Assembly: GCA_964618625.1 (NCBI GenBank)
Contig: CAZUBI010000001.1
Location: 1,940-65,939 of the forward strand
Source: an uncultured Candidatus Saccharibacteria bacterium
Lineage (GTDB): Bacteria > Patescibacteriota > Minisyncoccia > UBA6257
DNA: 64,000 nt
Reading direction: 5' to 3'
The notes below the pieces were generated by a model. The model did not search any database. It had not been told where the DNA came from and worked only from the letters and a program-made list of their open reading frames with translations. This document shows, piece after piece, positions 16,102 through 45,952 of this stretch (position 1 is the stretch's first letter; each line of letters starts with the position of its first letter). The position numbers and the translations under genes are program-made.

Positions 16102-16128
16102 TTAGCACTCTTGACATTTGATTGCTAA
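16102..16128 (+). promoter_or_regulatory. CIRCE operator (variant) overlapping a TTGACA-17-TAAAAT promoter
   Basis: TTAGCACTC-TTGACATTT-GATTGCTAA against consensus TTAGCACTC-N9-GAGTGCTAA. Lies 34 nt upstream of hrcA. Confidence 0.7.
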
Positions 16129-30843: not shown

Positions 30844-30972
30844 GCTACTTGTTATTGACCTATAATCTATAATCTGGTATCATATAGATGATAAAGAATA
30901 ACCTTATAGGTTGTTTTTTAATACTTACTTAGCACTCTTGAAAATTAAAAAATTTTAGAAAGGAGTAAGAAA
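30844..30972 (+). promoter_or_regulatory. family-2 conserved promoter and long 5' leader, copy 1
   Basis: TTGACC-17-TATCAT promoter, then a leader of about 95 nt ending in TTAGCACTCTTGAAAATTAAAAAATTTTAGAAAGGAG (SD) 8 nt before the ATG. Nearly identical to 42482-42605. Confidence 0.55.
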
Positions 30973-31266
30973 ATGGGTAAGCAAATTGAAGTTATTGTAA
31001 GAGATGATGAGACTAATCGCCAGATTGTCGCTTTAAGATATGAAAAACCTGATGAAATAAAAAGTGAGTCTGCGCTTGAGGAACGTAGAGCAACCGCTAT
31101 TTTTTTAGAAAGTCTTGCAAAAGAAATACATAAGCTTCTATCTCGGAAATTTGAAGATTTTATAGAAATGCCTAAAGATTCTGGAATTGAGCTAAGATTC
31201 CCAGTGTCATTAAATGACAGACCATTTGAGATAATTAAGAAAGAATTCATTGTAGAAATAAAATGA
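30973..31266 (+). CDS. hypothetical protein (97 aa)
   Basis: Strong SD (AGGAG). No recognised domain. Confidence 0.45.
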   Translation: MGKQIEVIVRDDETNRQIVALRYEKPDEIKSESALEERRATAIFLESLAKEIHKLLSRKFEDFIEMPKDSGIELRFPVSLNDRPFEIIKKEFIVEIK

Positions 31267-31308
31267 TTGTATTAATAAGGGAGAAAAAAATTTTAGAAAA
31301 AAGGAGGA

Positions 31309-31885
31309 ATGAAAAATAAGATATTATTTTATTGGCGTTCGTGAAGTAAAGCTTGTTGGTAGAAATGGAAGTATTGCACAAGAAAGCAAGAGGCAAATAA
31401 AGAAAACTGCTAAAATACTAAGAGAATCCAAAATTGCTGATCGGTTTCCTGAAATTGTTTATTCAAATGGGTCTCGTGCAGGAAATATAACAGCAAAACT
31501 TCTTGCAAATTTACTTGGAATTAAAAAAGTAGAGATTAATAAAGCATTTGATGGGAAGAGAGAACCAGCAGCATTTATTAAAAAATGGTTTGGACTAAAA
31601 AAGGTAAAGAAAGAAGCAATTAACCCAGTCAAGAAAATGGTTAATGAGCTAACCAGGTTAGAGAATAACGTTAACAATATAAACATAGCAATCTGTTCAG
31701 GTAAACTTCTCTATTCCAGTACAAGATTGACATATAAACGGTTTAAGAAACCCAATTTATCAACAAGGAAAAGATTGTTTTTGCGTCCAGCTGAATCTTA
31801 TATTTTAGAACAGCATGACGATTGGGGGTTTGAACTAAAATATATGTTTCCGTCTAAAAAAACAATTGATATCCTGGCTTCATAA
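31309..31885 (+). pseudogene. SixA/histidine-phosphatase-like ORF with an apparent +1 frameshift near the start
   Basis: AAGGAGG then an ATG at 31309 gives MKNKILFYWRS-stop. A long open frame continues from 31313 in +1 with no ATG, aligning loosely to SixA (LVGRNGSIAQESKRQ...DRFPEIVYSNGSRAGNITAKLLANLLG). The RHG catalytic motif is not recognisable. Confidence 0.35.
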
Positions 31886-31982
31886 AGACACACTAATTAA
31901 ATTTAGTCTTGATGGTCGTTGGAAAATTAAAACTCTCCAGTGGCCTGTTTTTTAAAAAAACTTGTAATTTATCTAAAAAAAA

Positions 31983-32048
31983 GGTTCCAATATCGTTCCA
32001 TAGCCCCAGTAAATTAGAATCGCCAAAGAGGCGATTTTTTGGTAGAAT
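31983..32048 (+). repeat. cassette junction (Box A + Box C)
   Basis: GGTTCCAATATCGTTCCATAGCCCCAGTAAATTAGAATCGCCAAAGAGGCGATTTTTTGGTAGAAT, 9 nt before the ATG at 32058. Confidence 0.6.
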
Positions 32049-32057
32049 ATAGATATC

Positions 32058-32450
32058 ATGAAAACAATTTTAGTTGATGCAGTTTATACTTTTGTAATAG
32101 AAAATGATGGGATTTTCAAGCTCTTTAAGCAAATGTATGATTTGCTTGAAACTTTTCCAAATAGAAAAATTATTTTGACTGGAGCTAATGATGAACAATT
32201 CAAAAAGTCCAACTTAGACAAAATGCCTTATGAAGTTTTTACACTAAAGCATAATCCAGAAAAAACCGATCCAAAATATTACAAAGCAATGCTTGAACAT
32301 TTTGGTTTTAATAAAAACGATGTTATATATTTTGAGCATGATGAGAACGCAGTAAAAAGTGCACAGTCAGTTGGTATCAAAACCTACAATTACGATTCAG
32401 AGAAAAAGGATTTGATTGCGCTCAAAGATTTTCTGATGGAAAATCTATAA
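32058..32450 (+). CDS. HAD-like hydrolase (short, atypical motif I)
   Basis: ILVDAVYTF (motif I-like), ILTGAN, and the C-terminal IYFEHDENAVKSAQSVGI typical of HAD motifs III/IV. Confidence 0.45.
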   Translation: MKTILVDAVYTFVIENDGIFKLFKQMYDLLETFPNRKIILTGANDEQFKKSNLDKMPYEVFTLKHNPEKTDPKYYKAMLEHFGFNKNDVIYFEHDENAVKSAQSVGIKTYNYDSEKKDLIALKDFLMENL

Positions 32451-32504
32451 AGAAAAAGTTTGAATTTTGTTGAAGATTAAAGGTTAGCGAAAATTAAAAT
32501 TAAT

Positions 32505-33161
32505 ATGAAATTATTACTTACCTCTGGTGGTATAACCAATAAGTCAATTGCTGATGCATTGTTTGATTTGGTTGGCAAAAAGCCGCAAGATACTTCACTG
32601 GTTTTTATTCCCACAGCTGCAAATACAGAAATCGGCGATAAAAGCTGGTTTATTGATGATTTGTTAAATTTAAAAAATCAAAATTTTAAGTCCATTGATA
32701 TTGCTGATATCTCAGCGGCTGACAAAAAGATTTGGAGGTCAAAACTGGAAGAGACTGATGTGTTATTTTTTGGAGGAGGTAATACTTATTATTTAATGGA
32801 ATGGATTAATAAATCAGGCCTTGCGTCTTTTTTTCCTGAGTTATTGAAAGACAAGGTGTATGTAGGATTGAGTGCTGGGAGCATGGTAACAAGCAAAAAT
32901 TTGGCTCTCAAAATTTCTCAAATTTTGTATGAAGAAGATTTGGATAAAACCGAAGACATGCCAGGACTTAACTTTGTGGATTTCTATTTTTTACCTCACT
33001 TGAATTTCCCTTATTTTGAAAAGTTGAGAGAAGATTTTATAAAAGAAACTGTAAAAGGGATGCCGGAAAAGATATACGTTTTAGATGATAACTCTGCTTT
33101 GAAAGTTATTGATGGAAAAGTTGAAGCAATAAGCGAGGGAAAGTGGTTTGTAATCAATTAA
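32505..33161 (+). CDS. peptidase S51 (dipeptidase E-like)
   Basis: LLLTSGG, FFGGGNTYYL, and GLSAGSMV (nucleophile Ser). Confidence 0.65.
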   Translation: MKLLLTSGGITNKSIADALFDLVGKKPQDTSLVFIPTAANTEIGDKSWFIDDLLNLKNQNFKSIDIADISAADKKIWRSKLEETDVLFFGGGNTYYLMEWINKSGLASFFPELLKDKVYVGLSAGSMVTSKNLALKISQILYEEDLDKTEDMPGLNFVDFYFLPHLNFPYFEKLREDFIKETVKGMPEKIYVLDDNSALKVIDGKVEAISEGKWFVIN

Positions 33162-33185
33162 TAAAGTTTTATTGATTAAACTCAA

Positions 33186-34172
33186 GTGCTTATGAAATTT
33201 CAGATTTTGAAAAACAAAAAGAAATTCTTTATTTTTCCAACCATACCTTTTCATTTTGACTCTACTTTTTATAAGCCAGGGCATTTTCCAACCAGTGACA
33301 TGAAGTGGGAATCGGGAAAAAGATGGCAAACTATGTTGTGGAAAGGAAAGAAATTAGGCTTGATCTTTGAAGATAAAAGTGTTGGTAGAAAGTCTAAAGT
33401 ATTGGTTAATGTTTTTTCAGATAAGAAATTATCAACGGAATTTATTGAAGGATTGAAAAAAGAAATTATTTTGCGTTTTAATCTTGATTTAAATCTTGCT
33501 GAATTTTATCAGATGGCCAAAAAAGACATTTTGCTTAAACCAATTATTAGAAGATTTAAAGGTTTGAGGCCAATGCATTCTGGTTCTTTGTATGAATATT
33601 TAATTATTGCCATTGTTTTACAAAATGCCACTATAAAAAGAAGTGTTTATATGATGCAAATTCTTTTTGAAAATTATGGCAGTTTGCTTCAGTTTGACAA
33701 TCAAAAATTTTGGTGTTTTTGGAAGCCGGAAATATTAGTCAAAGCCAAAGAGCAAAAACTAAGAGATTTAAAAATGGGTTATCGGGCCAAATCCTTAATT
33801 AAAGTTTCTGAGCCGTTTGTTAAAGGAGAAATCAATGAATTAGAATTAAGAACAAAATCTTACGAAGAACAAGAAAAAGCCCTTGTTAATCTTTATGGAA
33901 TTGGTCCAGCTTCAATAGGATATATTATGTTTGATGTTTTTCATAGATGGGATTATTTAAATCATATTTCTCCTTGGGAGCAAAAGATTTATACTAAGAT
34001 ATTCTTTAATAAGAATTACGAAAAGGAATTAGTTTCTGTAGAAAGAATGCTTAGATATTTTGATAAATGGGGTAAATGGAAGAATTTAGCAGTTCATTAT
34101 GTTTGGGAAGATATCTGGTGGAAAAGAAAAAACAAACATATTCCCTGGCTAGAAAAAGAAATCCGGCTTTAA
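33186..34172 (+). CDS. HhH-GPD DNA glycosylase, Ogg-like paralog (possibly non-canonical)
   Basis: KMGYRAKSL and an HhH motif LYGIGPASIGYIMFDVF. Paralogous to 40806..41651, but the HhH lysine is replaced (GIGPAS vs GIGPKV). Confidence 0.5.
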   Translation: MLMKFQILKNKKKFFIFPTIPFHFDSTFYKPGHFPTSDMKWESGKRWQTMLWKGKKLGLIFEDKSVGRKSKVLVNVFSDKKLSTEFIEGLKKEIILRFNLDLNLAEFYQMAKKDILLKPIIRRFKGLRPMHSGSLYEYLIIAIVLQNATIKRSVYMMQILFENYGSLLQFDNQKFWCFWKPEILVKAKEQKLRDLKMGYRAKSLIKVSEPFVKGEINELELRTKSYEEQEKALVNLYGIGPASIGYIMFDVFHRWDYLNHISPWEQKIYTKIFFNKNYEKELVSVERMLRYFDKWGKWKNLAVHYVWEDIWWKRKNKHIPWLEKEIRL

Positions 34173-34247
34173 TTTTAAGAAATAGCTGATGAATTAAGAA
34201 ATACAAAAGAAGAGTGCGTTAATAAAAAGAATTATTGAATAGCTTTT

Positions 34248-34946
34248 ATGTTTATAAAAAATCCAAAAGTGAAATTTGTTATAGACCCGAAAGAAGATAT
34301 AAAAAATTATATTCTTTTTAATAAGTACAAATATGCTGCCAGCGATCCAAAAACATTCAAAATGTTTTTGCCTCAAAAATTGCATTATATTTTAAAAAGC
34401 CGATTTTCCGAGAAACAGAAAGCAAAAATAGTGAAAGCATATGTAAAAAATACGTTTATTTTACACAAAAAAGAAATAGCCCAAAATACCGACAGAGCCA
34501 AGAAAGAATGGCACAAGGTGGCAAAGGATTACTTTCGGCTGATGAATAGAATTTTTAAAGATCATCCTTGGCCGAAGGGAAAATATATAGGATTTGCCAG
34601 CGTGTTTGAAATGTATCCCAAAAACGTTAAAGAAAAAATATTTTATTTTTCCGGACTAAAAAAAGATTTAAATTTTAACATTGCCACAATAGCTCATGAA
34701 ATGCTTCATTTTATGTTTTTTGACTATATCGACAAGAATACCAGAGTTAGAGATAGAGGCTCAGAGAACATATGGAATGCTTCAGAAGTTTTTAATTTAG
34801 TAATTGAAACATGGAAACCATATCAAAAGATTTTTAAAACAAATGGTAAGGCGTATTATTTTATGCATAAAAAGATGTTACCCAAAATGAAAAAGCTATG
34901 GAAAGAAAAAGAAGACATTGATTACCTATTAAACCACTATTTTTAA
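34248..34946 (+). CDS. hypothetical protein with an HExxH motif
   Basis: IAHEMLHFMFFDY. May be a metal-dependent hydrolase. Confidence 0.35.
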   Translation: MFIKNPKVKFVIDPKEDIKNYILFNKYKYAASDPKTFKMFLPQKLHYILKSRFSEKQKAKIVKAYVKNTFILHKKEIAQNTDRAKKEWHKVAKDYFRLMNRIFKDHPWPKGKYIGFASVFEMYPKNVKEKIFYFSGLKKDLNFNIATIAHEMLHFMFFDYIDKNTRVRDRGSENIWNASEVFNLVIETWKPYQKIFKTNGKAYYFMHKKMLPKMKKLWKEKEDIDYLLNHYF

Positions 34947-34954
34947 TCCCTAAT

Positions 34955-35389
34955 ATGAAAAATCAATTAATTAATGTTGGGAAAAGATATGTATTCTGTT
35001 TGATTGGTTACAATGGACAAATATCTTTATCTAAACTTTGCGATGATACTTGCAGTGAAGTTTCCCGAATGTTGGCTCAATGGTTTCTAAAAAAATTGCC
35101 TAAAGCAGATATGTATATTGCAAAAGGGAAGATTGGGAAACGATTTCATGATTTACTACTAGTTCACGATAAGGAAGTTTATATATTAGATCCTACAGTA
35201 TGGCAATTCTTTAAAAATAAGAAATCAATTCTTATTAAAAAAACAAAAACAGTTAATGATGCTCTTTCAGTACTTGTAAGTATATATGGAGGAAAATGGA
35301 AAATCTCAGAGCGAATTGCCAAATATTCAAATAAAGAGATAAAACAGCTTAAAAGCGTTTTGGCGAAAAGATTTAAAAAATCTTTATAA
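34955..35389 (+). CDS. hypothetical protein
   Basis: 144-aa ORF, no recognised motif. Confidence 0.35.
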   Translation: MKNQLINVGKRYVFCLIGYNGQISLSKLCDDTCSEVSRMLAQWFLKKLPKADMYIAKGKIGKRFHDLLLVHDKEVYILDPTVWQFFKNKKSILIKKTKTVNDALSVLVSIYGGKWKISERIAKYSNKEIKQLKSVLAKRFKKSL

Positions 35390-35530
35390 TACTTATATTA
35401 CTGGGTACTAACCTCATGTGGTCTGTTTTTGCTCTTAGTTTGGCATTATGAAAATAATTCGTATAATAACCAGTTGTACGGAATAGAAAAACATATTTAT
35501 TAAAATAGAATTTTGGAGTAAAATAAATTT

Positions 35531-36493
35531 ATGTTAAACAATATAAAAGATTTTGTAGAGATTTTTAAATGCCCCGATTGCGAGGAAGATTTAGTTATTG
35601 ATGGTGAAAATCTTAAGTGTAGAAAATGTGACAGAATTATTCCTGTGGTTAATGGTGTTGCGATTTTTTTATCACAAAAAGAATGGAAAGAGTTTTTTAG
35701 TAAAAGCCACAACTTTGAGAATTATACTATGGATAGCGAAAAACTCTTTTTTCAAGAAATTTTAGAGCAAAATGATTATTTAAAGTCTATTGAGATGATT
35801 GATAAATATACTGATTCGGAAGAGAATAAAAAAACTTTTGCGGAAATAACTGGCTCGACAGGAACTGATGATAAAGAATTAGAAAGAGCAATTTTGGAAG
35901 CAAATGATAAGATATTAGATAAGGGCGAGGTTGATAAAGCAAAAATGATTTTGGACTGGCCGACTGGCCCAGGCGCTTTTATTCTAAGAATGGTTAATAA
36001 AATTAGTAGGGATGTTGTTGTTGTAAGTTCTGAGATTAATCTATTCAGTATTTTTCGATTAAAAAAATATCTAGAATCAAAAGGGTTAGCTGACAATATT
36101 CTTTTTGTAAACAATGATGTTATAAAAATGCCATTTAAAGACGATGTTTTTGACTTGGTATCGGTATTTGGATTGACCGTTGAAGTTCCAGATTCAGATA
36201 AAGCTTTGAGTGAGACATACAGAGTTATGAAATCTGGCGGGGTAATCGTAGGGAGTGGAGAGATATATAAAGAAGGTTCTGAAAGTATGAAATTGGCCGA
36301 TGAAATGAATATTGGCCAGCTTTGTACAAGTGAAAGATTTTCTCAGAAAATAAATAAAATCGGTTTTAAAAACATTGATATTGAAATCGCTTATGAAGGC
36401 TATGATACGGATGATTTACCGGACGAAGAAAGATGTCCACTGCCCGCGAGAGGTGATTGGTTTTCTTACGTTATCATAAAGGCAGAAAAATAA
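35531..36493 (+). CDS. class I SAM-dependent methyltransferase with an N-terminal Trm112-like zinc ribbon
   Basis: CPDCEEDL...CRKCDRIIPVVNGVAIFL, then the motif I-like ILDWPTGPGAF and motif II VVVVSSEIN. Confidence 0.6.
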   Translation: MLNNIKDFVEIFKCPDCEEDLVIDGENLKCRKCDRIIPVVNGVAIFLSQKEWKEFFSKSHNFENYTMDSEKLFFQEILEQNDYLKSIEMIDKYTDSEENKKTFAEITGSTGTDDKELERAILEANDKILDKGEVDKAKMILDWPTGPGAFILRMVNKISRDVVVVSSEINLFSIFRLKKYLESKGLADNILFVNNDVIKMPFKDDVFDLVSVFGLTVEVPDSDKALSETYRVMKSGGVIVGSGEIYKEGSESMKLADEMNIGQLCTSERFSQKINKIGFKNIDIEIAYEGYDTDDLPDEERCPLPARGDWFSYVIIKAEK

Positions 36494-36505
36494 TCTTTTC
36501 TATTA

Positions 36506-37309
36506 ATGATGAAAGAAATAGAAATTATTCAACAATTTGAGGATATTTTTATTAAAGCTGGAAAGCTGGCAGTTAAATTGAGAAATAATGCTGTTATTGA
36601 GCAAAAGCATAATTCTGGGATAAAGGATATTGATATTGTCACGAGTGCAGATTTAACTGTTCAAGAATTCGTGTTGGAGAAATTAGCAGTATCAGAATTG
36701 AAGCACTGTGAAATCGTTGCAGAAGAAGATACCCCTAGTAGAAACTTGTTTGCCAAATCTTCTAATTTTGTAATTACTATTGATCCAATTGATGGTACAA
36801 AGCTATACGCCAGTGGTAAAAAGATGTATTCCATAATCATAACCGTTCATAATAAAAAAAGGCCGATTTATACTTTTTGTTATTTTCCTGAGGTTAAATG
36901 GGGGGTGAAAATTGTTTATGATGAATGTCATTTTTTTGGTAATAAGCCAAAAATAATACATAATACAGTTCAGCCAAAGACGATTGTTTACTCATTTTAT
37001 AACTCAAAAGGAAATCCTATAGATTCTATTCATGGGCAACCCAAAGAATTATTAAAAGAGCGTTATATTTTTCGGAATAAAAAAGAAATTACCAATGAAG
37101 CTGGTTCAACTGCCCTTTTCTTATTAGGAATTGTTGATGGATATTTTGTAGAAAATGGATCAGCTGTTGATTGCCTTGTCGGACTTCATTATGCATTAGC
37201 ACGAGGGTTTAAAGTTTACCAAAATATTGATTTAGAAAAAACGGTTTCGAGTAAACTTTCTAGTGGAAGCGAAGAATATAGAGGTAATTATTTGGTTATT
37301 AGAAATTAG
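36506..37309 (+). CDS. inositol monophosphatase/FBPase family phosphatase
   Basis: VITIDPIDGTKLY metal-binding motif (DPIDGT), and WDCLVG-like ALARG region. Confidence 0.6.
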   Translation: MMKEIEIIQQFEDIFIKAGKLAVKLRNNAVIEQKHNSGIKDIDIVTSADLTVQEFVLEKLAVSELKHCEIVAEEDTPSRNLFAKSSNFVITIDPIDGTKLYASGKKMYSIIITVHNKKRPIYTFCYFPEVKWGVKIVYDECHFFGNKPKIIHNTVQPKTIVYSFYNSKGNPIDSIHGQPKELLKERYIFRNKKEITNEAGSTALFLLGIVDGYFVENGSAVDCLVGLHYALARGFKVYQNIDLEKTVSSKLSSGSEEYRGNYLVIRN

Positions 37310-37364
37310 AAACATTAACAGAAAAATAAAAAGAATTTATTGTCAAAACAAAAATCATATTACA

Positions 37365-37395
37365 AATCGCCAAAAAGGCGATTTTTTGGTAGAAT
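37365..37395 (+). terminator. Box C only (hairpin + TGGTAGAAT)
   Basis: AATCGCCAAAAAGGCGATTTTTTGGTAGAAT, 13 nt before the ATG at 37409. The upstream reading frame translates the repeat as KSPKRRFFGRI. Confidence 0.55.
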
Positions 37396-37408
37396 AAAGG
37401 ATATAAAC

Positions 37409-37759
37409 ATGTCATATATATTAAGAAAAATCAAAGATAGTAATTCAAAGGATATAACTTGTGGAGTAATGCGCAATTTGACTACAGCGGGAGATTTTAA
37501 AGAAATGGATTTTGCTCATGTTACTATTACAGACAAAACTAAGGAGCATTATCATAAAGAACTCACTGATGTCTATTATGTATTAAAAGGTTCTATAGCT
37601 ATTGAAATTGATGGAAAGGTTGAGAATTTAGAAGAGGATTCATTAATAATGATTTATCCGAATACAAATCATAAAGCTTGGAAAACAAGTAAAGAAGACG
37701 CAGAAATCTTAGTAGTATGTTGTCCTCCTTGGAGCGAGGAAGATGAAATATTAGTTTAA
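37409..37759 (+). CDS. cupin domain protein
   Basis: EHYHKELTDVYYVLKG...IYPNTNHKAW, a two-His cupin motif. Start placed after the Box C promoter. Confidence 0.5.
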   Translation: MSYILRKIKDSNSKDITCGVMRNLTTAGDFKEMDFAHVTITDKTKEHYHKELTDVYYVLKGSIAIEIDGKVENLEEDSLIMIYPNTNHKAWKTSKEDAEILVVCCPPWSEEDEILV

Positions 37760-37763
37760 TATT

Positions 37764-38105
37764 ATGAAATTAGATTCCGCAATATTTTATACAAATAATT
37801 TAGAAAAAGTTATTCCTTTTTACAGGAATATAGTTGGTTTGAATATAGAATATATTCAAGAAGGTAAATTTGTTTCTTTTAAATTTGAAAATGGGAGATT
37901 AGGTATAAAACAGGCAAAAGAAAAAAGAGAGATACCAGGGCATCAAACTATTTTTATAGAAATAGAAGACATTGAGAAAACATATAATGAGTTTAAGGAA
38001 AAAGGAATAATCTTTTTAAAGGAATTAACACAAGAAAATTGGGCAACTAATTTTAGTTTTCTTGATCCTGATGGCAACAAGATTCAATTTATGAAAAGAA
38101 AATAG
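37764..38105 (+). CDS. VOC/glyoxalase-bleomycin resistance family protein
   Basis: A beta-alpha-beta-beta-beta module with FLDPDGNKIQF at the C-terminus. Confidence 0.65.
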   Translation: MKLDSAIFYTNNLEKVIPFYRNIVGLNIEYIQEGKFVSFKFENGRLGIKQAKEKREIPGHQTIFIEIEDIEKTYNEFKEKGIIFLKELTQENWATNFSFLDPDGNKIQFMKRK

Positions 38106-38131
38106 GTTTCAACATCGTTCCATAGCCCCAG
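38105..38131 (+). repeat. Box A only copy (variant)
   Basis: GGTTTCAACATCGTTCCATAGCCCCAG. Confidence 0.5.
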
Positions 38132-38235
38132 CAAATTAAGTTTAAAAAGTCGCCCTCTTGATATTTCTCTTACAATATTGTAAAGTTAGGGCAAAAGGTC
38201 GGAGCTTCATTAATATTAAATTTTGACCAAATATT

Positions 38236-38463
38236 ATGATTGTAGAATTTGTTTTAAAAGAGCGTCCCTCAGAATTAAAGATTGAAGGTTACGAAGAATT
38301 AGATTTTACCATTGGTTCTGTTTTTGCAAGCCCAGTAGATAAAAGAGTGGAAGTAGTAGTTAAAAAACATCCCGATGGAAGAGTAAGTATATTTACCGAC
38401 AAATCAGAGGTTATAAAAACCATCACTCAAACAACTGAAGTTGTTGATATTCACGTCAAATAA
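38236..38463 (+). CDS. hypothetical small protein
   Basis: 75-aa ORF. Confidence 0.3.
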   Translation: MIVEFVLKERPSELKIEGYEELDFTIGSVFASPVDKRVEVVVKKHPDGRVSIFTDKSEVIKTITQTTEVVDIHVK

Positions 38464-38476
38464 ACGAAAACTAAAA

Positions 38477-38507
38477 AATCGCCAAGAAGGCGATTTTTTG
38501 GTAGAAT
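38477..38507 (+). terminator. Box C only
   Basis: AATCGCCAAGAAGGCGATTTTTTGGTAGAAT, 8 nt before the ATG at 38516. Confidence 0.55.
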
Positions 38508-38515
38508 AGAAGTAT

Positions 38516-38812
38516 ATGAGAACAATTCCTTTCCCTTTTAGATACAAGAAAGCCTTATTAAATAAGACTAAAAATACGACTATTCGCGTTAGCAAGGAAG
38601 TTGGAAAATACAAGAAAGGAAGAATTTATGTAACAGAATCTTATGCTGGTAGAAATTGGGGTGTTAAAATCAAAATTAATGATGTAGTTTCTACAAAACT
38701 AGGCGATCTTAAAGATTTCGGAATTCCTAAACAAAGCATCAATGCTATTTTAAAACAAAAAGGAATTTCCCTCAAAAGCAAAGCAGATTTGATTAGATTT
38801 GAGATAATATGA
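38516..38812 (+). CDS. ASCH-like small protein
   Basis: 98 aa, PUA-like beta-barrel pattern (TIRVSKE...KGRIYV). Weak call. Confidence 0.3.
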   Translation: MRTIPFPFRYKKALLNKTKNTTIRVSKEVGKYKKGRIYVTESYAGRNWGVKIKINDVVSTKLGDLKDFGIPKQSINAILKQKGISLKSKADLIRFEII

Positions 38813-38813
38813 A

Positions 38814-38908
38814 AGTTTCAACATCGTTCCATAGGGACAGCTATCTAGTTTTTTATCGAGGGACCGAGATACATCAAAATCGCCAAAAAGGCGATTTTTT
38901 GGTAGAAT
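38814..38908 (+). repeat. cassette junction (variant Box A + Box B + Box C)
   Basis: AGTTTCAACATCGTTCCATAGGGACAG, then CTATCTAGTTTTTTATCGAGGGACCGAGATACATCAAA, then ATCGCCAAAAAGGCGATTTTTTGGTAGAAT. Confidence 0.6.
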
Positions 38909-38917
38909 ATAGATAAT

Positions 38918-39865
38918 ATGAAAATTGGAGACGTATTTTTTGCAAAAGTTAAAAGCTTTGAGGAATTTAAAGATTTTATCAAGAACTTAGATATTAAGGC
39001 TGACATTTTTATTATTAAACCAAATTGGGTAGAGCCATCTAAAGGGCAATACACAGAAGTGCTGCCACTGCAATGGTTGTTTGATTGTTTGGATGGAACA
39101 AAAATAATAATAGAGAGCCATACTGCTTGGAGAAATAAACTTCTTTTGGAGACTGGAAAAGTTATTGTTAATGCGGATAACGTAAGTCAGAAAAGAGATT
39201 TTTTAAGAGAAAATGACAAATGGTTTCTTGAAGCTACGGGCTTAAAAGAATTATTAAAAAAATATAATGTTGAGTATATAAATATTACAGAAGAAGTATG
39301 GAAAGGAGAAGTTGTTGACTCTGAAATTATTAGAGAAATTGTAGAGGAAAAATTCGCCGCTGTTCAACATAAAGAGTTATACAGCGTAATTCCTAAAAAG
39401 ATATTTGGATTAAAAAATACTGTTTTGATTGATTTGGCAAAAATTAAGACAGACGGAAGCGTTGTGATGAGTTTATCAACTAAAAATCTTTTTGGCTTGA
39501 TTCCAGATCCAAAACGTTCTCCAAGATATCACGACCATGAGAAGAAGATACTTCCTTACGCAATTTTAGATATGAATAAAATTTATCGTGCTCTTTTTAA
39601 AACTGTATTTATAAACGAGGGAATTTTTACTGCAATAGACGGACCTTCGCCAGAACAAGGAAGATTAAAAGAAGGCCTTAATTTAATTGTTGCCGGTCAT
39701 AATTCTATTGATGTTGATTTAACAACAGCAAAACTTGTTGGAATTAACCCAGAAGAATTGTTAGATAATTTACTTCAGCCAGTTAATGAAGTTTTCGGCT
39801 CAAGCCCGGAAATATTAACTGATATCCCGGAGAATTTTTCTGATAGATTGAATTATAAAGATTGA
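38918..39865 (+). CDS. DUF362-like protein
   Basis: IIKPNWVEP pattern. Weak call. Confidence 0.35.
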   Translation: MKIGDVFFAKVKSFEEFKDFIKNLDIKADIFIIKPNWVEPSKGQYTEVLPLQWLFDCLDGTKIIIESHTAWRNKLLLETGKVIVNADNVSQKRDFLRENDKWFLEATGLKELLKKYNVEYINITEEVWKGEVVDSEIIREIVEEKFAAVQHKELYSVIPKKIFGLKNTVLIDLAKIKTDGSVVMSLSTKNLFGLIPDPKRSPRYHDHEKKILPYAILDMNKIYRALFKTVFINEGIFTAIDGPSPEQGRLKEGLNLIVAGHNSIDVDLTTAKLVGINPEELLDNLLQPVNEVFGSSPEILTDIPENFSDRLNYKD

Positions 39866-39885
39866 TTATTAAAAAACCATTAAAA

Positions 39886-39912
39886 AGCTTCCAACATCGT
39901 TCCATAGCCCCA
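39886..39912 (+). repeat. Box A only copy (variant)
   Basis: AGCTTCCAACATCGTTCCATAGCCCCA followed by TTGACT-17-TATATT promoter-like sequence. Confidence 0.5.
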
Positions 39913-39924
39913 ACTTTTTATCTA

Positions 39925-40094
39925 TTGACTTTTAATATAAAATATGCTATATTTATGATATCCTATAATGGGATATTTTTAGTTCTTTGAAAAAGAATAT
40001 TTCTACTATCTGCTATATAACTGATCATTACATATGATTAGTGGTTGGTTATATGGCAGGTAGTTAAAGTATAAAATAAAAAACTTAGAAAGGA
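39925..40094 (+). promoter_or_regulatory. diverged family-2-like promoter and long leader
   Basis: TTGACT-17-TATATT, about 130 nt of leader, then CTTAGAAAGGAGTGAAAAAAATG. Compare TTTAGAAAGGAGTAAGAAAATG in copy 1. Confidence 0.4.
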
Positions 40095-40574
40095 GTGAAA
40101 AAAATGCATAAGAACAAAAAGGTAGATGAGATAAAATTTGAGATGAGTATTAGTGGTATTAGTTGCGATGGTACTCAAAGCGTGTTTTTGAAAGTGTTTG
40201 GTAAAGAGATTGCGCTCAGATATTTTTATGACGGAATTCCCAAAATTTACATTCGTGTAGATGAAAAAGAGAAAGAGATTTCCTTGAAACGAGATCCAGT
40301 ATCCTTTTTCGCTTATCCATTAATGAAGATATTTGAAGTGTCGGAGGAAACAGATAAGGAAATGGATGAAAAAAAAATAAATGTAAAATTCGAGATTTTG
40401 GAAAAACTGTCAAAAGATATAGGAAAAACAGACTATGAGCTCATAATATGTTTCAGACCATTATTGGAATACAACCCAGATAATATAAGATATATTGATG
40501 TTAGCTTTGAGAGTTTAAGGAAGACAGATTATAAGAGGGAGGTAATTTTTGCACATTTTATTCCTAATTACTAA
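40095..40574 (+). CDS. hypothetical protein
   Basis: 159 aa with a strong SD. No recognised domain. Confidence 0.4.
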   Translation: MKKMHKNKKVDEIKFEMSISGISCDGTQSVFLKVFGKEIALRYFYDGIPKIYIRVDEKEKEISLKRDPVSFFAYPLMKIFEVSEETDKEMDEKKINVKFEILEKLSKDIGKTDYELIICFRPLLEYNPDNIRYIDVSFESLRKTDYKREVIFAHFIPNY

Positions 40575-40689
40575 GTTTAAATAATTTTATCGAAGAAGAA
40601 CGGATAATTAATTGATTAAAATTTACATCAAGATATCCGTTTTTTTATTTAAACAGATTTTAATATTGTTAAGCAATTTGAGCCAAAAA

Positions 40690-40776
40690 GGTTCCAACAT
40701 CGTTCCATAGCCCCAGCCGTCTAGTTTTTTTTATCGAGGGACCGAGATACATCAAAATCGCCAAAAAGGCGATTTT
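40690..40776 (+). repeat. cassette junction (Box A + Box B + Box C with TGATAAAAT)
   Basis: GGTTCCAACATCGTTCCATAGCCCCAG CCGTCTAGTTTTTTTTATCGAGGGACCGAGATACATCAAA ATCGCCAAAAAGGCGATTTTTTGATAAAAT. Confidence 0.6.
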
Positions 40777-40805
40777 TTGATAAAATAAATTAATAGTAGA
40801 TAGTT

Positions 40806-41651
40806 ATGAAATTTAAAATTTCCAAAACTAAATTCAAAGGTCCCTTTAATCTAAAATTAACTTTAGATTCTGATCAATGTCCTTCAGATATCTGGTGCCT
40901 TAAAAATGGAAAATATACGACATTTATTGAATTAAAGAATAATTGGATTCCAATAGCAGTTTGGGAAGAAAAAGAAAATCTATTTTTTGAATGTAAAGAA
41001 GATATTTCTGAGAAGCTTCTTTATCATTTTTGGTCAGATTATTATTTATTAAGATTTTATTCTGAGTTTGCTTCAGATAAATATATATCAAAAGCTATTA
41101 ATTTCTGCCAAGGTTTAAGACTAATGCGAGATTGGGATATAAATTACAGGATTATTGAAGCAATCTTAACTCAAAATGCTTCTGTCAAACAAATTAGAAA
41201 TATGGAGAGTAATTTGAGAAATTTTTATGGCAATCAACATACTTTTAATTTGGAAGAAATTGCAAATGCAAACGAAAAGAAGATTCAGAAGAAATGTAAA
41301 GTTGGATATAGGGCAAAATATCTTATAAGTGTAGCCAGAAAAATTTTAAATAACGAATTAAACATTGAGCAAATAAAAGAAATGGATAGCACTGATGCAA
41401 GGAGATTACTAACAGATATTGAAGGAATAGGACCAAAGGTTGCAGATATAATTTTACTTTATGGATTCGGCAAAATAGATACTTTTCCAATGGACGTTTG
41501 GTTAAGAAGGGCATTGACTAGAGAATATTTTAAAGGAGAACAAACTTCGGATAAAAAACTAAGAGAGTTTGCTCTGAATTATTTTGGCAGGCATGCTGGA
41601 ATAGCGCATTTATACATGTTTTATTACGAAAGGAAAATTAAATCTTCATAA
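40806..41651 (+). CDS. 8-oxoguanine DNA glycosylase/AP lyase (Ogg, HhH-GPD)
   Basis: KVGYRAKYL, then HhH DIEGIGPKVADIILLYGFG with the catalytic Lys, and FPMDVWL with the Asp. Confidence 0.65.
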   Translation: MKFKISKTKFKGPFNLKLTLDSDQCPSDIWCLKNGKYTTFIELKNNWIPIAVWEEKENLFFECKEDISEKLLYHFWSDYYLLRFYSEFASDKYISKAINFCQGLRLMRDWDINYRIIEAILTQNASVKQIRNMESNLRNFYGNQHTFNLEEIANANEKKIQKKCKVGYRAKYLISVARKILNNELNIEQIKEMDSTDARRLLTDIEGIGPKVADIILLYGFGKIDTFPMDVWLRRALTREYFKGEQTSDKKLREFALNYFGRHAGIAHLYMFYYERKIKSS

Positions 41652-41655
41652 TAAA

Positions 41656-41682
41656 GGTCCCAACATCATTTCATAGCCCCAG
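41656..41682 (+). repeat. Box A only copy (variant)
   Basis: GGTCCCAACATCATTTCATAGCCCCAG. Confidence 0.5.
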
Positions 41683-41721
41683 CACGAGTTAGTATAGTAT
41701 CAAGAAACTAATGTTATAAAT

Positions 41722-42381
41722 ATGGAAAACAACCTACAAAATATTAAAGCTGTGATCTTTGATGTTGATGGCACTTTATCTTCTCAAATATCGTGGACAG
41801 CTCTCACAAAAGATTTAGGAGCATCAGTCGAGAAACATCTTGAGATTTTTAAAGAGTTTAAAGAACAAAAGACCACATATGAGGTATCCAAGAAAAAACT
41901 TTTGATATTATGGAAAGAAACTGGTAATGCCAAACGACAATTTTTAGAACAGCTATTTATAAACTGGCCACTCAGAAAAGACGCAGAAGAAATCATTTCA
42001 TTTTTAAAAAATAAAGAATATCTTCTGTGTATTATAACTGGCTCTTTTGATTTATATGCACAAATTATTGCCAAAAGATTAGGGATTAAGTATTATTTTG
42101 CAAACACAAAACTTGATTGGGATTCTAAAGGGAATCTTACTGATTTTCATTATTTTAAAGATCAAGCGTCCAAGAAATTAGAGCAATTTACTGAATTTTG
42201 TAAAATGCAAAATATAAAGTCGGAAAACTGTGTGGCCGTTGGCGATGATGAAAATAATATTAAACTTTTTAAAATCATGAAAGGTATAGCTGTAAAATCG
42301 ATTCATTCTGAACCACTAGAAGAAATTGCTTGGAAGACAATAAATAACCTTTTAGAACTAAAAGAGATTTTAAGTAGATGA
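41722..42381 (+). CDS. HAD-IB hydrolase (phosphoserine phosphatase-like)
   Basis: Motif I VIFDVDGTL, motif II ITGS, and motif IV VAVGDDENNIKLF. Confidence 0.7.
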   Translation: MENNLQNIKAVIFDVDGTLSSQISWTALTKDLGASVEKHLEIFKEFKEQKTTYEVSKKKLLILWKETGNAKRQFLEQLFINWPLRKDAEEIISFLKNKEYLLCIITGSFDLYAQIIAKRLGIKYYFANTKLDWDSKGNLTDFHYFKDQASKKLEQFTEFCKMQNIKSENCVAVGDDENNIKLFKIMKGIAVKSIHSEPLEEIAWKTINNLLELKEILSR

Positions 42382-42481
42382 GTTAATCCATTACAGGGTT
42401 GTACCACTTTTTAGTATGCTTGGAATCTGTCGTTGTGGTAAAAAATCAGCTTTTATCGAGAGATCGAGATACACAATCGAC

Positions 42482-42605
42482 TGTTGACCCATAATCTATA
42501 ATCTGGTATTATATAAATGATAAAAGGTAGTCTGAAAAGGTTATTTTTTAAAATTTCAATTGCACTCTTGAAAATTAAAAAAATTTTAGATAAGGAGGAA
42601 AAATA
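42482..42605 (+). promoter_or_regulatory. family-2 conserved promoter and long 5' leader, copy 2
   Basis: TTGACC-17-TATTAT, then the leader, then TTGCACTCTTGAAAATTAAAAAAATTTTAGATAAGGAGG. Preceded by a Box B-like TTTTATCGAGAGATCGAGATACACAATCG. Confidence 0.55.
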
Positions 42606-42728
42606 AATGAATAAAATGATAGAAAAAGTGTTATATCAAGCATGCAAAAATAAAAGAGATATTCTTTGTTTAATACCCAAGGAAGGAGGAAATCTTGCGC
42701 TAGCATTTTCTGCACCTAATATGATTAA
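42606..42728 (+). CDS. small ORF (40 aa)
   Basis: Strong SD AAGGAGG 8 nt upstream. First ORF after the family-2 leader. Not in the ORF track because it is under 60 aa. Confidence 0.25.
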
Positions 42729-42776
42729 ACTTTCTTTAGAAAAAGATAGAAAAAATAAAAAAGGAGGTAAAAGAAA

Positions 42777-43205
42777 ATGAAAAAAGATGTAAGTAATATA
42801 GTATCTTTAAAAATTGTTCTTATTCGAATACAAAATCTGCATAAGAAGATTTCTCAAGAAGAAGATATGGCAATAGATATGAATCAACATGCCAATCTTT
42901 ATTTCAAAAAACAAATGACAATTTTTAGGAAATTACTTAAAGAATTGGGTAAGAGAATTTATAAAGAAACTAGATCTAAATCAGACGGTATGAAATTCAT
43001 AACATCTAATGTTAAAAAGGTGAAATGTAGAATTACTGAAAAAGGGCAAATAGTTGGAGAAATATTTTTTGATTTTTATCCTTTCCATTTGGAAAATTTT
43101 GTTAAGAAAAACAAATTGAGTTTTGTAAAAAAAGTAGCAGTTCTATTAGAGATACCTAAAGAATATATTGATATACGTTTTCACATGACGGAAGATGCAA
43201 AATAG
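42777..43205 (+). CDS. hypothetical protein
   Basis: 142 aa, SD AAGGAGG upstream. Confidence 0.4.
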   Translation: MKKDVSNIVSLKIVLIRIQNLHKKISQEEDMAIDMNQHANLYFKKQMTIFRKLLKELGKRIYKETRSKSDGMKFITSNVKKVKCRITEKGQIVGEIFFDFYPFHLENFVKKNKLSFVKKVAVLLEIPKEYIDIRFHMTEDAK

Positions 43206-43260
43206 GGGAAGTGAAGAAAAATGAAGAAACTAAAATCTAAACAATAAAGGAGAGGGAGAA

Positions 43261-43467
43261 ATGACGACTAATAAATATCTTGTGATTTATTGGGAGCATG
43301 GATCGGATGGAACTGGGAAAAGTATTATAAAGCACTGTAAAGAAAATACAAACCAATATATTTGGCTGACCAAGGAAGAAGCATTGCAAGCCTATGCAGA
43401 AGCAAAGAGGCAGAAGAAGCAGAATCTTATGATTTTAAAGAGAGTCGTGAGTTTTGAGAGGAGGTAA
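43261..43467 (+). CDS. hypothetical small protein
   Basis: 68 aa, SD AAGGAGAGGGAG upstream. Confidence 0.35.
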   Translation: MTTNKYLVIYWEHGSDGTGKSIIKHCKENTNQYIWLTKEEALQAYAEAKRQKKQNLMILKRVVSFERR

Positions 43468-43602
43468 AAATGATAATCGAAGGGAGCTCTTCAAATTCCA
43501 TTAAGGATTTTGTAGGATCTCCCTTTTTTATTATCTAAAACAGGTTCTAGCTCTTCGGAAAGCTCAGAGCATAGTAAAGTTCAATTCTGGGAGCGGGTTT
43601 TT

Positions 43603-43635
43603 AAAATCGCCAGAAAGATGATTTTTTGGTATTAT
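43603..43635 (+). terminator. degenerate Box C (TGGTATTAT)
   Basis: AAAATCGCCAGAAAGATGATTTTTTGGTATTAT, 8 nt before the ATG at 43644. Confidence 0.4.
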
Positions 43636-43643
43636 AGAGATAT

Positions 43644-43958
43644 ATGGAAGAAAAACATATAGCAATGTGTGGATTAGAATGTAATACTTGCGAAGCATTC
43701 ATTGCTACAAAAAATAATAATTATGATTTAAGAAAGAAAGTTGCAAAGGAATGGACAGAAAGATATAAAATCAATCCCCCTTTAGAGCCGAGGGATATTA
43801 ATTGTCGGGGTTGTTTATCGCAATACGGACCATTGTATAGAAATTGTCTTTTGTGTGAAGTTAGAAAATGTGGATTTAGTAGAGGGATTAAAAATTGTAA
43901 AGAATGTAAAGATTATAAATGCGATAAGCTCACAAATCTACAAAATAATCTTTTTTAG
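43644..43958 (+). CDS. Cys-rich DUF3795-like protein
   Basis: CGLECNTCEAF, CRGC, CLLCEVRKC, CKECKDYKCDKL. Confidence 0.45.
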   Translation: MEEKHIAMCGLECNTCEAFIATKNNNYDLRKKVAKEWTERYKINPPLEPRDINCRGCLSQYGPLYRNCLLCEVRKCGFSRGIKNCKECKDYKCDKLTNLQNNLF

Positions 43959-43977
43959 AGAAGAAAATCTTAGAAAA

Positions 43978-44072
43978 GTTCCAACATCGTTCCAGAGGGC
44001 CAGCTGTCTAGTTTTTTTATCAAAAGACCGAGATACATTAAAATCGCCAAAAAGGCGATTTTTTGGTAGAAT
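43978..44072 (+). repeat. cassette junction (variant Box A + Box B + Box C)
   Basis: AGTTCCAACATCGTTCCAGAGGGCCAG CTGTCTAGTTTTTTTATCAAAAGACCGAGATACATTAAA ATCGCCAAAAAGGCGATTTTTTGGTAGAAT. Confidence 0.6.
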
Positions 44073-44081
44073 ATAGATAAT

Positions 44082-45236: not shown

Positions 45237-45260
45237 TTTTTGATTATTTTCTATAAAATA

Positions 45261-45326
45261 GGTTCCAACATCGTCCCATAGCCCCAGCAAATTAGAATCG
45301 CCAAAAAGGCGATTTTTTGGTAGAAT
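45261..45326 (+). repeat. cassette junction (Box A + Box C)
   Basis: GGTTCCAACATCGTCCCATAGCCCCAGCAAATTAGAATCGCCAAAAAGGCGATTTTTTGGTAGAAT. Confidence 0.6.
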
Positions 45327-45335
45327 AGAAATAAT

Positions 45336-45842
45336 ATGGAAGATGAATATTTAGATATAGTTGATGAGAATGATAATGTCAAAAGCAAAGACACGAGGGA
45401 GAATATTTGGAAAAGAGGATTAGAGCACAATGTAAGAGTTGTAAATATTTTTATTTTTAATTCAAAAGGGGAATTACTTCTGCCAAAAAGGTCAATGAAT
45501 AGAAGGATTTTTCCAGGATGTTATGATTTTTCTTGTGGCGAGCATGTTCAAGCTGGAGAAGATTATTATGATGCTGCACTCCGAGGATTAAAAGAGGAAT
45601 TAGGAATCGTAGATCAAAAATTAGTTGAGTTGGGAAAAATAACTCCAAAAGAAGGAGTAAATTGTTTTATGAAAGTATATAAATTAACCTATGATGGAGA
45701 AATAAATAAGTATGATAAAAACGGAATTGATAATTTATTCTGGTATGATTTAATAACAATAAAAAAGATAATTAAAGAAGATAAGAATAAATTTAAAACA
45801 GATTTCCCGATTGTTTTAGAATGGCTACAGCAATTTAGTTGA
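45336..45842 (+). CDS. Nudix hydrolase
   Basis: Nudix box GGEHVQAGEDYYDAALRGLKEELGI. Confidence 0.7.
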   Translation: MEDEYLDIVDENDNVKSKDTRENIWKRGLEHNVRVVNIFIFNSKGELLLPKRSMNRRIFPGCYDFSCGEHVQAGEDYYDAALRGLKEELGIVDQKLVELGKITPKEGVNCFMKVYKLTYDGEINKYDKNGIDNLFWYDLITIKKIIKEDKNKFKTDFPIVLEWLQQFS

Positions 45843-45907
45843 GATAAGACGAGAAGGAATTTTTTTATACTGCCTCATTTATCTTATTTGTGATAAAATA
45901 ACTTCAA

Positions 45908-45952
45908 TCAAGATACGTCGAAATCGCTAAAGAGGCGATTTTTTGGTAGAAT
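45908..45952 (+). terminator. Box B-like + Box C
   Basis: CAAGATACGTCGAAATCGCTAAAGAGGCGATTTTTTGGTAGAAT, 6 nt before the ATG at 45959. Confidence 0.5.

Follow-up and report, generated by a model that had tools for sequence, protein, structure and literature searches.

A putative promoter and leader element with a conserved 5' hairpin heads Shine-Dalgarno-led cassettes in a tRNA-Ser-anchored array of a Patescibacteria genome

The window, a 64,000-nucleotide (64-kb) stretch of an uncultured Candidatus Saccharibacteria genome (assembly GCA_964618625.1, contig CAZUBI010000001.1, positions 1,940 to 65,939), has about 30% G+C and comes from a low-GC genome of the Patescibacteria, or Candidate Phyla Radiation (CPR). 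Core genes are followed by a tRNA-Ser(GGA) gene at 29262-29351 (ARAGORN and Rfam) and then by an array of about 20 kb (29388-49113). The array is anchored at the tRNA gene and contains about 25 cassettes, all on the + strand; the features described below lie on this strand unless another is given. Three of the cassettes open with a promoter and leader element, termed P, which is the subject of this report. Two copies belong to subfamily P1 (copy A, 30855-30972; copy C, 42484-42606) and one belongs to a sister subfamily, P2 (copy B, 39925-40103). At other junctions of the array, the same slot is held by a different module, termed T. Loci outside the window are designated by L numbers.

An earlier note on this DNA had described two near-identical elements at 30844-30972 and 42482-42605. 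Both are present. The promoter 29-mer TTGACCYATAATCTATAATCTGGTATYAT occurs twice and exactly in the window (30855-30883 and 42484-42512), with 0 occurrences expected (100 shuffles). Across the full elements, copies A and C are 78% identical over 139 aligned columns. From 5' to 3', P1 consists of R1, X or R0 (junction sequences described below), about 11 nt ending in CTTATTA, the putative -35 hexamer TTGACC, the 17-nt spacer TATAATCTATAATCTGG, the putative -10 hexamer TATyAT and the sequence ATAAATGATAAAGAAT. These are followed by a stem (AACCU/AGGUU), a run of five to six U, about 25 variable nucleotides, the box YTTGAWAA with an A run, a Shine-Dalgarno (SD) sequence and the start codon. The leader measures about 85-90 nt, slightly shorter than the approximately 95 nt first proposed. 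In 16 of 18 P1 copies, the -35 hexamer and the ATG are 117-127 nt apart.

In copy A, the predicted promoter (30855-30883) has its -35 hexamer TTGACC at 30855-30860, the 17-nt spacer, TG at -15/-14 and its -10 hexamer TATCAT at 30878-30883. The YTTGAWAA box (CTTGAAAA) is at 30937-30944 and is conserved in the P1 and P2 leader alignments. The putative SD sequence AAGGAG (30960-30965) ends 7 nt before the ATG at 30973. In copy C, the promoter reads TTGACC-17-TATTAT (42484-42512) and the box, assigned from the leader alignment, is at 42567-42574. The predicted sigma-70 promoters at 30855, 42484 and 39925 match 10 of 12 consensus positions and have TG before the -10 (extended -10). The design of the copy A promoter is kept in about 20 distinct copies. 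The promoter spacer nATAATnTAnnATnTGn and the initially transcribed region are about 90% conserved, including in L004, L005, L006, L040 and L043, which were found without the promoter pattern. The promoter and SD assignments rest on consensus match and position, and that of the hairpin described next rests on covariation.

A conserved hairpin near the 5' end of the leader had been missed by the earlier note. In copy A it lies at 30892-30920 (AAAGAAUAACCU-loop-AGGUUGUUUUUU), where an A tract, a stem and a U tract form an intrinsic-terminator-like structure (folding free energy, dG, -11.2 kcal/mol; z -4.2). In copy C, the hairpin and its U run are at 42521-42550 (dG -6.9 kcal/mol), and the stem differs from that of copy A by compensatory changes. 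It is the sole conserved helix of the P1 leader in the RNAalifold consensus, and its pairing runs into the flanking A/U tracts. In the alignment, 94.6% of cells are paired, against 42-67% when the register is slid by 1-3 columns. Doubly changed cells number 8, compared with 2.7 +/- 1.2 in shuffled alignments, and none of 500 shuffles reaches 8. Three hairpin pairs have compensatory changes (A-U to G-C in four sequences; C-G to U-A in three). The P1 hairpin is maintained by compensatory changes. The presence of G.U pairs indicates that the structure is specific to the + strand and so would act as RNA.

The hairpin and its run of five to six U are present in 15 of 17 P1 leaders and also in P2. 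Its free energy across P1 copies (-7 to -12 kcal/mol) is comparable with that of the T hairpin (-10.8 kcal/mol). The G+C-containing core is just 6 bp, and a simple terminator scan did not flag it. In P2, L022 and L025, different hairpins occur at the same position. The P1 hairpin resembles an intrinsic terminator, and a terminator role is predicted from this resemblance.

The region at 39925 had been taken as a looser third version of the same element. The shared architecture is borne out, but membership in a diverged P1 is not: the P1 covariance model gives no match there (E > 1). The region 39925-40103 aligns well with L040:219, L038:3572 and L009 and was re-filed with them as P2. In P2, the predicted promoter TTGACy-17-TATAyT with TG is followed by a 5' hairpin (AUAUCCUnUAAUAGGAUAU) with five U. 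The TTTGAAAA box comes immediately next, and then a further hairpin of about 25 bp and an SD sequence. In copy B, the promoter TTGACT-17-TATATT with TG is at 39925-39953, as aligned with L038, L040:219 and L009, and the 5' hairpin (AUAUCCUAUAAUGGGAUAU) with five U is at 39957-39980, with the TTTGAAAA box after it. The P2-specific leader hairpin has 26 bp (40005-40064; dG -33 kcal/mol, z -8.2). Its counterparts are at L009:1822-1882, L040:300-355 and L038:3652-3709 (z -5 to -9). The long hairpin of L038 is unrelated in sequence, which indicates that in P2 the structure, and not the sequence, is conserved. It could be an RNase III site or a stabiliser.

P is found in other genomes. In the genome collection, 13 contigs contain an exact 20-mer of R1. 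Nearly all come from CPR/Patescibacteria metagenome-assembled genomes (MAGs) labelled Saccharibacteria, Jorgensenbacteria or Nealsonbacteria, and a few are evidently mis-binned. These contigs hold the same arrays of R1, X and T and three more P copies (L004, L005 and L006). A degenerate promoter pattern gave 23 more metagenome contigs (L015-L037). The total is 29 P copies, about 18 of them distinct, with two more reached through protein homologues (L040 and L043). The search of other genomes for the leader that the earlier note had suggested therefore returned copies by all three routes. Four loci of the genome collection, 23 metagenome contigs and two contigs reached by protein homology hold P copies beyond those of the window. 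A covariance model of the transcribed part recovers all P1 copies at E values of 1e-13 to 1e-5, including L040:1745, which was outside the training set. The family is limited to a narrow group of related CPR genomes, and several contigs have identical copies. At every locus, P follows R1, X or R0, in the slot held by T at other junctions.

A scan with Rfam 15 at gathering scores gave two tRNAs in the window and no leader, riboswitch or small-RNA family. At E <= 1, there was no Rfam match in 30270-31000 or 42380-42640. As judged from these sequence comparisons, P is a new putative promoter and 5' untranslated region family that lies outside any Rfam family.

The open reading frames (ORFs) behind P differ from the other genes of the window. 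A strong SD sequence, defined as an AGGAG or GGAGG type 7-10 nt from the start codon, precedes all six ORFs of the three P cassettes. The window has 66 other ORFs with 90 aa or more, among them dnaK, groEL, dnaB, cysS, tgt and queA, and 3 of these have such a sequence (Fisher p = 5e-7). The earlier claims of a conserved promoter and leader heading operons of small unknown proteins, and of downstream ORFs that bear SD sequences unlike the host genes, are supported by this count. Since only 3 of the 66 other ORFs carry an SD sequence, such genes are not common among the core genes here. The comparison supports the P genes as a class distinct from the SD-less or leaderless genes of the host. They also differ in content. 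Pfam matches above the curated cutoff are found for none of the six P genes and for 17 of 23 other genes of the array (p = 0.002).

The array context of P had not been recognised previously. The array opens at R0 (29388-29409; GGTTCCAATCCAAGACCCCCAG), a site that resembles the 3' end of a tRNA. Arrays in L006, L009, L021 and L024 likewise begin after a tRNA-Ser gene, and an R0 homologue (GTGGTTCGAATCCAcGTCCCCCAG) is found 20-40 nt downstream of tRNA-Ser GGA, CGA and GCT genes (L024, L006 and L009). The junction repeat R1 (27 nt; GGTTCCAACATCGTTCCATAGCCCCAG) has 13 copies in the window, all on the + strand, and is also present in CPR MAGs. R0 and R1 are homologous to one another. Both carry a T-arm-like GGTTCGAATCC and an acceptor-like CCCCCAG, but in sequence they differ from the adjacent tRNA-Ser at its 3' end. 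No internal dyad is present in R1, and neither strand gives a consistent hairpin. The X module (26 nt; a variant of TTTTTTATCGAGGGACCGAGATACAT) has four copies in the array and at some junctions stands between R1 and T. Copy A of P1 is directly preceded by R1 at 30817-30843, copy C by X at 42449-42474 and the P2 copy by R1 at 39887-39913, so that three junctions have P or a P-like head in place of T. Junction sequences part into T, X and P classes immediately past ...CCCCAG, and the cassette boundary is therefore assigned to the R1 3' end.

The T module, with which most cassettes start, has about 14 copies and reads AATCGCC-AAAAA-GGCGATT-TTTTT-TGG-TAGAAT, in which a GC-rich hairpin, a run of six T and TGGTAGAAT are followed by an ATG 6-9 nt further on. 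This layout suggests a hairpin and T run joined to an extended -10 promoter that would give leaderless or near-leaderless mRNAs. T-type signals also precede a core gene at 684-714, and T is therefore the native style of the host. The products of T cassettes are ordinary enzymes that are unrelated to one another: EEP nuclease, HAD, S51 and M20 peptidases, HhH-GPD glycosylases, methyltransferase, IMPase, cupin, glyoxalase, NUDIX, deaminase, aldehyde dehydrogenase and amidase. Exactly one hairpin with a U run follows R1 at 11 of 14 junctions in the window, and a hairpin before R1 is lacking in T-type cassettes. Neither the genes that flank the array nor the rest of the 64 kb gave a recombinase, and none was found among the matches listed for ORFs of the other loci, one listing of which gave the top 25 families. 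Among these matches, the search near arrays gave only one rve-type insertion sequence transposase (L009:103-1044).

In one unit of the array (30321-30816), R1 (30321-30347) is followed by an ORF at 30350-30772 (140 aa, no Pfam match above cutoff) that has no T or P head and no SD sequence. A competing ORF is on the reverse strand (30295-30666). The unit may be a decayed or atypical cassette. Related arrays carry cassettes of conflict or addiction type: a Panacea (SocA) antitoxin pair, Fic/DOC with a helix-turn-helix domain, and baeRF-family genes (L006:3991-4937, L014:910-1845, L021:3665-4813, L008:550-1698). Outside the array, a 32-nt repeat (TTTATTTyGAGCrAAGyGArAAACAArGTTCT) has five copies in the window (5788, 14981, 16726, 16777 and 55182). 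They are mostly intergenic, and two tandem copies are inside the annotated hrcA ORF region. A canonical promoter region of 53 nt (CTTGACAAAnTATTTTTnTTTGCTATAATG...) is duplicated with 91% identity at 49979-50031 and 50719-50771, ahead of a GGDEF gene and an unknown gene of 183 aa.

Cassette A contains two ORFs. The first (30973-31266) encodes a 97-aa orphan whose sole match among 5.8 billion clusters is itself. It is followed by a second copy of the leader 3' end with its SD sequence (31285-31307; AAAAAATTTTAGAAAAAAGGAGG), which is identical to L043:96-118, the end of the P1 leader at that locus. The second gene had been placed at 31309, where an ATG 1 nt past the SD sequence opens a frame that stops after 11 codons. 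The gene is at 31316-31885 (189 aa) and begins with ATA where its homologues have ATG. A comparison of 31285-31885 with L043:96-693 shows ATA AGA in place of the homologues' ATG GGA. Either the start codon has been lost or a non-canonical AUA start may be in use. The eight representative homologues start with MGYY. An AlphaFold2 (AF2) model of ORF2 (mean predicted local distance difference test, pLDDT, 89) matches PGAM5 in a Foldseek search (E = 6e-8), and the RHG histidine is missing. The modelled fold of the family is that of a histidine phosphatase (PGAM5/SixA-like) from which the catalytic RHG histidine is absent. At L042:140-232, in an organism of about 50% G+C, an ORF2 homologue lies behind TTGACA-17-TATAAG, then AATAAC... 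and a strong SD sequence. The P head may have a distant relative here, outside the low-GC lineage. Cassette A ends with a terminator-like hairpin and six T (31914-31953; dG -10.8 kcal/mol here and -21.9 kcal/mol in L043) upstream of the next R1 (31983-32009), which closes the cassette.

Cassette B has a single 156-aa orphan ORF (40104-40574) behind the SD sequence AAGGAG at 40090-40095. Its start is the ATG at 40104 and not, as first assigned, 40095 (159 aa). The protein has no homologue among the 5.8 billion clusters. Cassette C is an operon (42607-43467) of three ORFs with a strong SD sequence each: 57 aa (42607-42780), 142 aa (42777-43205, with an ATGA overlap with the first ORF) and 68 aa (43261-43467). 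Its first start codon is the ATG at 42607, one position from the original assignment of 42606. The 142-aa family has six members or close relatives. Its AF2 model (pLDDT 74) has a long helix and a small beta-beta-alpha-beta domain, with no match in the PDB at E < 1e-3, and a tblastn search against phages gave no match. The homologous operon in L040 ends with an AbrB/MazE-like gene, whereas cassette C has no such gene.

None of the six P-cassette proteins of the window matches Pfam, PHROG or PADLOC. The earlier statement that they have no recognisable domains holds in these databases, but not for ORF2 of cassette A with its histidine-phosphatase-like fold. At other loci, P heads short mosaic operons of small SD-led genes that draw on a shared pool in different combinations at each locus. 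The pool includes YopX, SpoVT/AbrB-MazE-like genes, membrane proteins of 58-105 aa, zinc-ribbon proteins and orphans. The AbrB/MazE-like gene (PF04014, E = 5.8e-8) is the commonest, being present at six loci and typically last in the operon. It is absent from the three P cassettes of the window and from the rest of the 64 kb. The last gene of several P operons has a MazE_antitoxin domain, yet no toxin family was recognised in the genes scanned.

The proposal that the P genes are of foreign origin is supported in part. The gene pool is of mobile-element type, with YopX, AbrB/MazE and mosaic operons, but composition is the same and matches to phages, plasmids and viral contigs are lacking. P genes, the rest of the array and core genes have G+C fractions of 0.308, 0.310 and 0.321, respectively, and base composition was rejected as a sign of foreign origin. 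A prophage or phage-derived region was also rejected. In addition to the missing PHROG matches, blastn and tblastn searches against phages were empty, blastn of the element against phage and plasmid collections gave no match, and two patterns gave 0 occurrences of the element in IMG/VR viral contigs. Among the genes of P loci, only the YopX gene of L004 and L016, which is behind a P leader, has phage homologues (30-33% identical, in temperate phages).

Heads, genes and whole cassettes are shuffled among loci. At L043, the ORF2 homologue of 188 aa comes directly after P1. The window instead has about 320 bp with the 97-aa ORF between duplicated leader 3' ends (AAAAAATTTTAGAAA at 30945-30959 and 31285-31299), and L043 does not have this insertion. 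The alignment indicates that the 97-aa ORF is an insertion into a P1 leader. The 142-aa family is behind P1 in the window and in L040 and behind P2 in L038, and by this comparison P1 and P2 are interchangeable. The flank LemA-HtpX-DUF4870-tRNA-Ser is common to the window, L007 and L024, and the first cassettes differ (a P1 cassette in L024). A unit made up of T, the M20 gene and R1 is the first cassette after tRNA-Ser(CGA) in L006 and about the seventeenth in the window. The M20, S51 and HAD cassettes are 90-96% identical in amino acid sequence between genomes and have different neighbours. The best reading of these patterns is that P has been exchanged between cassettes and that genes have been inserted at its A/U-rich 3' end.

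Three further functions proposed or considered for the leader were rejected. The A/U palindrome next to the SD sequence had been suggested as an operator or translational switch. It is absent in L017, L024 and L035, and only YTTGAWAA and the A run are kept across the family. RNAalifold gives no second conserved helix that would sequester the SD sequence, and CUCUU:SD pairing is seen only in some single-sequence folds. A leader peptide was considered at ATG 30888, which opens an ORF of 14 codons. This ATG is missing in L019, L022, L025 and L034 and shifted in L004 and L017. The TTGAAA of the box, read as a second -35 hexamer, has no correctly spaced -10.

We consider it probable, if not strongly so, that P is a self-contained expression and insulation module that forms the 5' head of cassettes with cargo of mobile-element type. 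Each cassette directly after R1 would start with one of two interchangeable heads, a leaderless T or a leadered, SD-dependent P. In P, TTGACC-17-TGG-TATyAT would be an extended -10 promoter of the sigma-70 type. The hairpin of A tract, 6-bp stem and U tract lies about 10 nt into the predicted transcript and would be the junction terminator for the upstream cassette. If it ends upstream transcription in this way, it may also attenuate or insulate the transcripts of P itself. The unstructured A/U-rich spacer with YTTGAWAA and a strong SD sequence 7-10 nt from the start would then bring ribosomes to the first gene, and the downstream genes would each use their own SD sequence or be translationally coupled. 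P would move together with short mosaic operons, whose small genes evolve fast and are of mobile-element type. A candidate autoregulator, which might act on the conserved spacer, is the AbrB/MazE-like gene that recurs at the end of P operons. Promoter activity, termination and any regulation are in each case predicted.

Several points weigh against this interpretation. The start site, termination and read-through are all predicted from sequence, as is use of the SD sequences by the host's ribosomes. A terminator 10-40 nt past its own promoter should cut the output of P. That would be unusual in a simple expression module and hints at regulation. With 6 bp, the AU-rich core stem is short, and in L022 and L025 it is not followed by a clean U run. 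Promoter conservation in L015-L037 is partly by construction, since these loci were found by the promoter pattern. Cassette A has a terminator-like hairpin of its own at its 3' end, so that the logic of one terminator per junction is not strict. In the window and among the matches listed for the loci examined, there is no recombinase to explain the movement of cassettes.

In the main alternative, P is a terminator-gated leader under control in trans. P would be silent by default, because of the hairpin at +10 to +40 or of a repressor on the spacer, and all P cassettes of a genome would form one regulon that is switched on in trans. Candidates for the switch are an antiterminator, like lambdoid Q at pR'-qut-tR', and the loss of an AbrB/MazE-like repressor that some P operons encode. 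This model would account for a promoter that is directly followed by a terminator-like hairpin in both P1 and P2, and for an AAGAAT at about +5 to +10 that, as read, resembles the host -10 TAGAAT. It would also fit the frequency of the AbrB/MazE-like gene in P operons. However, no Q-like or other antiterminator gene was identified, binding by an AbrB-like protein is hypothetical and the window has P cassettes with no AbrB-like gene in the whole 64 kb. The conservation of the spacer and initially transcribed region, even in copies found independently of the pattern, would be expected of a gated leader but may simply reflect recent spread. We regard this alternative as possible but unlikely.

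Recent spread is in turn the basis of a less likely explanation, in which the copies share ancestry by duplication or spread and the leader has no function beyond an ordinary promoter and ribosome-binding site. The identity of the window copies, the contigs with identical copies and the restriction to a narrow CPR group are all consistent with this. Ancestry alone would not explain why the same head is joined to unrelated genes, why the hairpin has compensatory changes and gives way to other hairpins at this position in P2, L022 and L025, or why the distance from the -35 hexamer to the ATG is so nearly constant. This explanation appears rather improbable.

It is very unlikely that P is a small-RNA or toxin-antitoxin-type locus. 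In such a locus, a terminated transcript of about 40 nt would itself be the product, for example as an antisense or antitoxin-like RNA. The small hydrophobic proteins behind many P heads would act as toxins, and the array would be stabilised by its cassettes. Type III toxin-antitoxin loci have the same order of promoter, short RNA, terminator and gene. The small membrane proteins are the products of many first genes in P operons, MazE-type genes recur and the arrays hold other addiction or conflict genes (Panacea, Fic/DOC and baeRF). Against this, the short RNA has no repeats, no recognised toxin family is present, no antisense promoter is evident and the first genes of the window's P1 cassettes (97 aa and 57 aa) are not hydrophobic.

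A heat-shock leader under HrcA and its operator CIRCE, or an attC-type DNA recombination site, is hardly credible: the 13-nt identity noted earlier between the leader (30929-30941) and the hrcA CIRCE (16102-16114) is real and the element is at cassette junctions, but the match is confined to the left arm, the half-site varies in the family (TTAGTACTC, TTAGTATTA, GAGGTAACT) and the right half is absent, 16102-16128 is the window's sole match to the full inverted repeat TTAGCACTC-N9-GAGTGCTAA, R1 and the hairpin are spaced differently at T, X plus T and P junctions, R1 forms no hairpin, and the G.U pairs argue for a structure of RNA and not of DNA.

The preferred reading of P as an expression and insulation module can be extended, more tentatively, to the array as a whole. 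R0/R1, T and P might constitute an integron-like cassette system that is so far undescribed in Patescibacteria. A 27-nt tRNA-like site by tRNA-Ser would receive very small cassettes, either by a recombinase encoded elsewhere or by homologous exchange of junction modules after DNA uptake. Each cassette would have a terminator-promoter head, and P would mark gated cargo derived from mobile elements that is switched on in trans, for example by an AbrB-type factor or an antiterminator. We think it doubtful that this proposal holds as a whole.

CPR/Patescibacteria have tiny genomes and are mostly uncultured, and their gene expression and gene exchange are almost unstudied. Here a single genome has two sharply different portable expression signals, the leaderless T heads and the SD-led P heads with a conserved RNA hairpin. 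If the interpretation is correct, P and T would provide defined promoter, terminator and ribosome-binding parts for CPR genetics and a marker for the accessory or mobile gene pool of CPR organisms. The array would be a candidate for a new cassette-based mechanism of genome plasticity without the hallmarks of integrons, and it is a more novel object than P itself. In the literature on integrons and cassettes and on leaderless and SD usage in CPR, no description of this system was found. A paper on 'hypervariation' in Gracilibacteria (PMC6851277) was set aside as a precedent, as it concerns a repeat protein and not cassettes.

Integron arrays, both sedentary chromosomal integrons and clusters of attC sites lacking integrases (CALINs), are the closest in form. 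Like the present array, they are long and one-directional and consist of short, unrelated, mostly single-gene cassettes with a repeat at every junction. The content and order of this array also vary between related genomes while the flanks are fixed, and addiction-type cassettes are present. Integron arrays include some cassettes with their own promoters, such as toxin-antitoxin cassettes, whereas here every cassette has its own head, T or P, and does not rely on a Pc promoter. There is no intI gene adjoining the array, and the anchor is a tRNA-Ser gene and not attI with Pc. R1 is a 27-nt non-palindromic sequence like a tRNA 3' end, unlike a folded attC with R''/L''-L'/R' boxes.

The tycheposon islands of Prochlorococcus contain integrated elements flanked by partial tRNAs and undergo island remodelling (bioRxiv 10.1101/2020.12.28.424599). 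The present array is similar in being a variable island seeded at a tRNA gene, with partial-tRNA-like repeats that punctuate the cargo. Tycheposons measure 10-20 kb, and a tyrosine or serine recombinase and replication genes of their own define them. In the present array the units are 0.4-1.5 kb, no recombinase was seen in the window or the loci examined, and R0 and R1 differ from the 3' end of the neighbouring tRNA-Ser. The array fails the defining tests of both integrons and tycheposons: no adjacent integrase, no attC hairpins and no element-borne recombinase were found in the regions examined, and the repeats differ from the adjacent tRNA.

For P itself, two known arrangements are similar. 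In the lambdoid pR'-qut-tR' region, a strong sigma-70 promoter is followed by an intrinsic terminator within tens of nucleotides, and the spacer and initially transcribed region are conserved. P likewise has a predicted promoter, a close terminator-like hairpin and a conserved spacer and early transcribed region. For P, however, no Q-like gene was identified, the terminator would be much closer to the promoter and the genes are not late phage genes. The second arrangement is that of 5'-terminal stabiliser or insulator hairpins and bidirectional intrinsic terminators, in which an A tract, a stem and a U tract are found near the 5' end of the mRNA. The stem of P is short and AU-rich and its role is a predicted one, but the layout of A tract, stem and U tract is the same.

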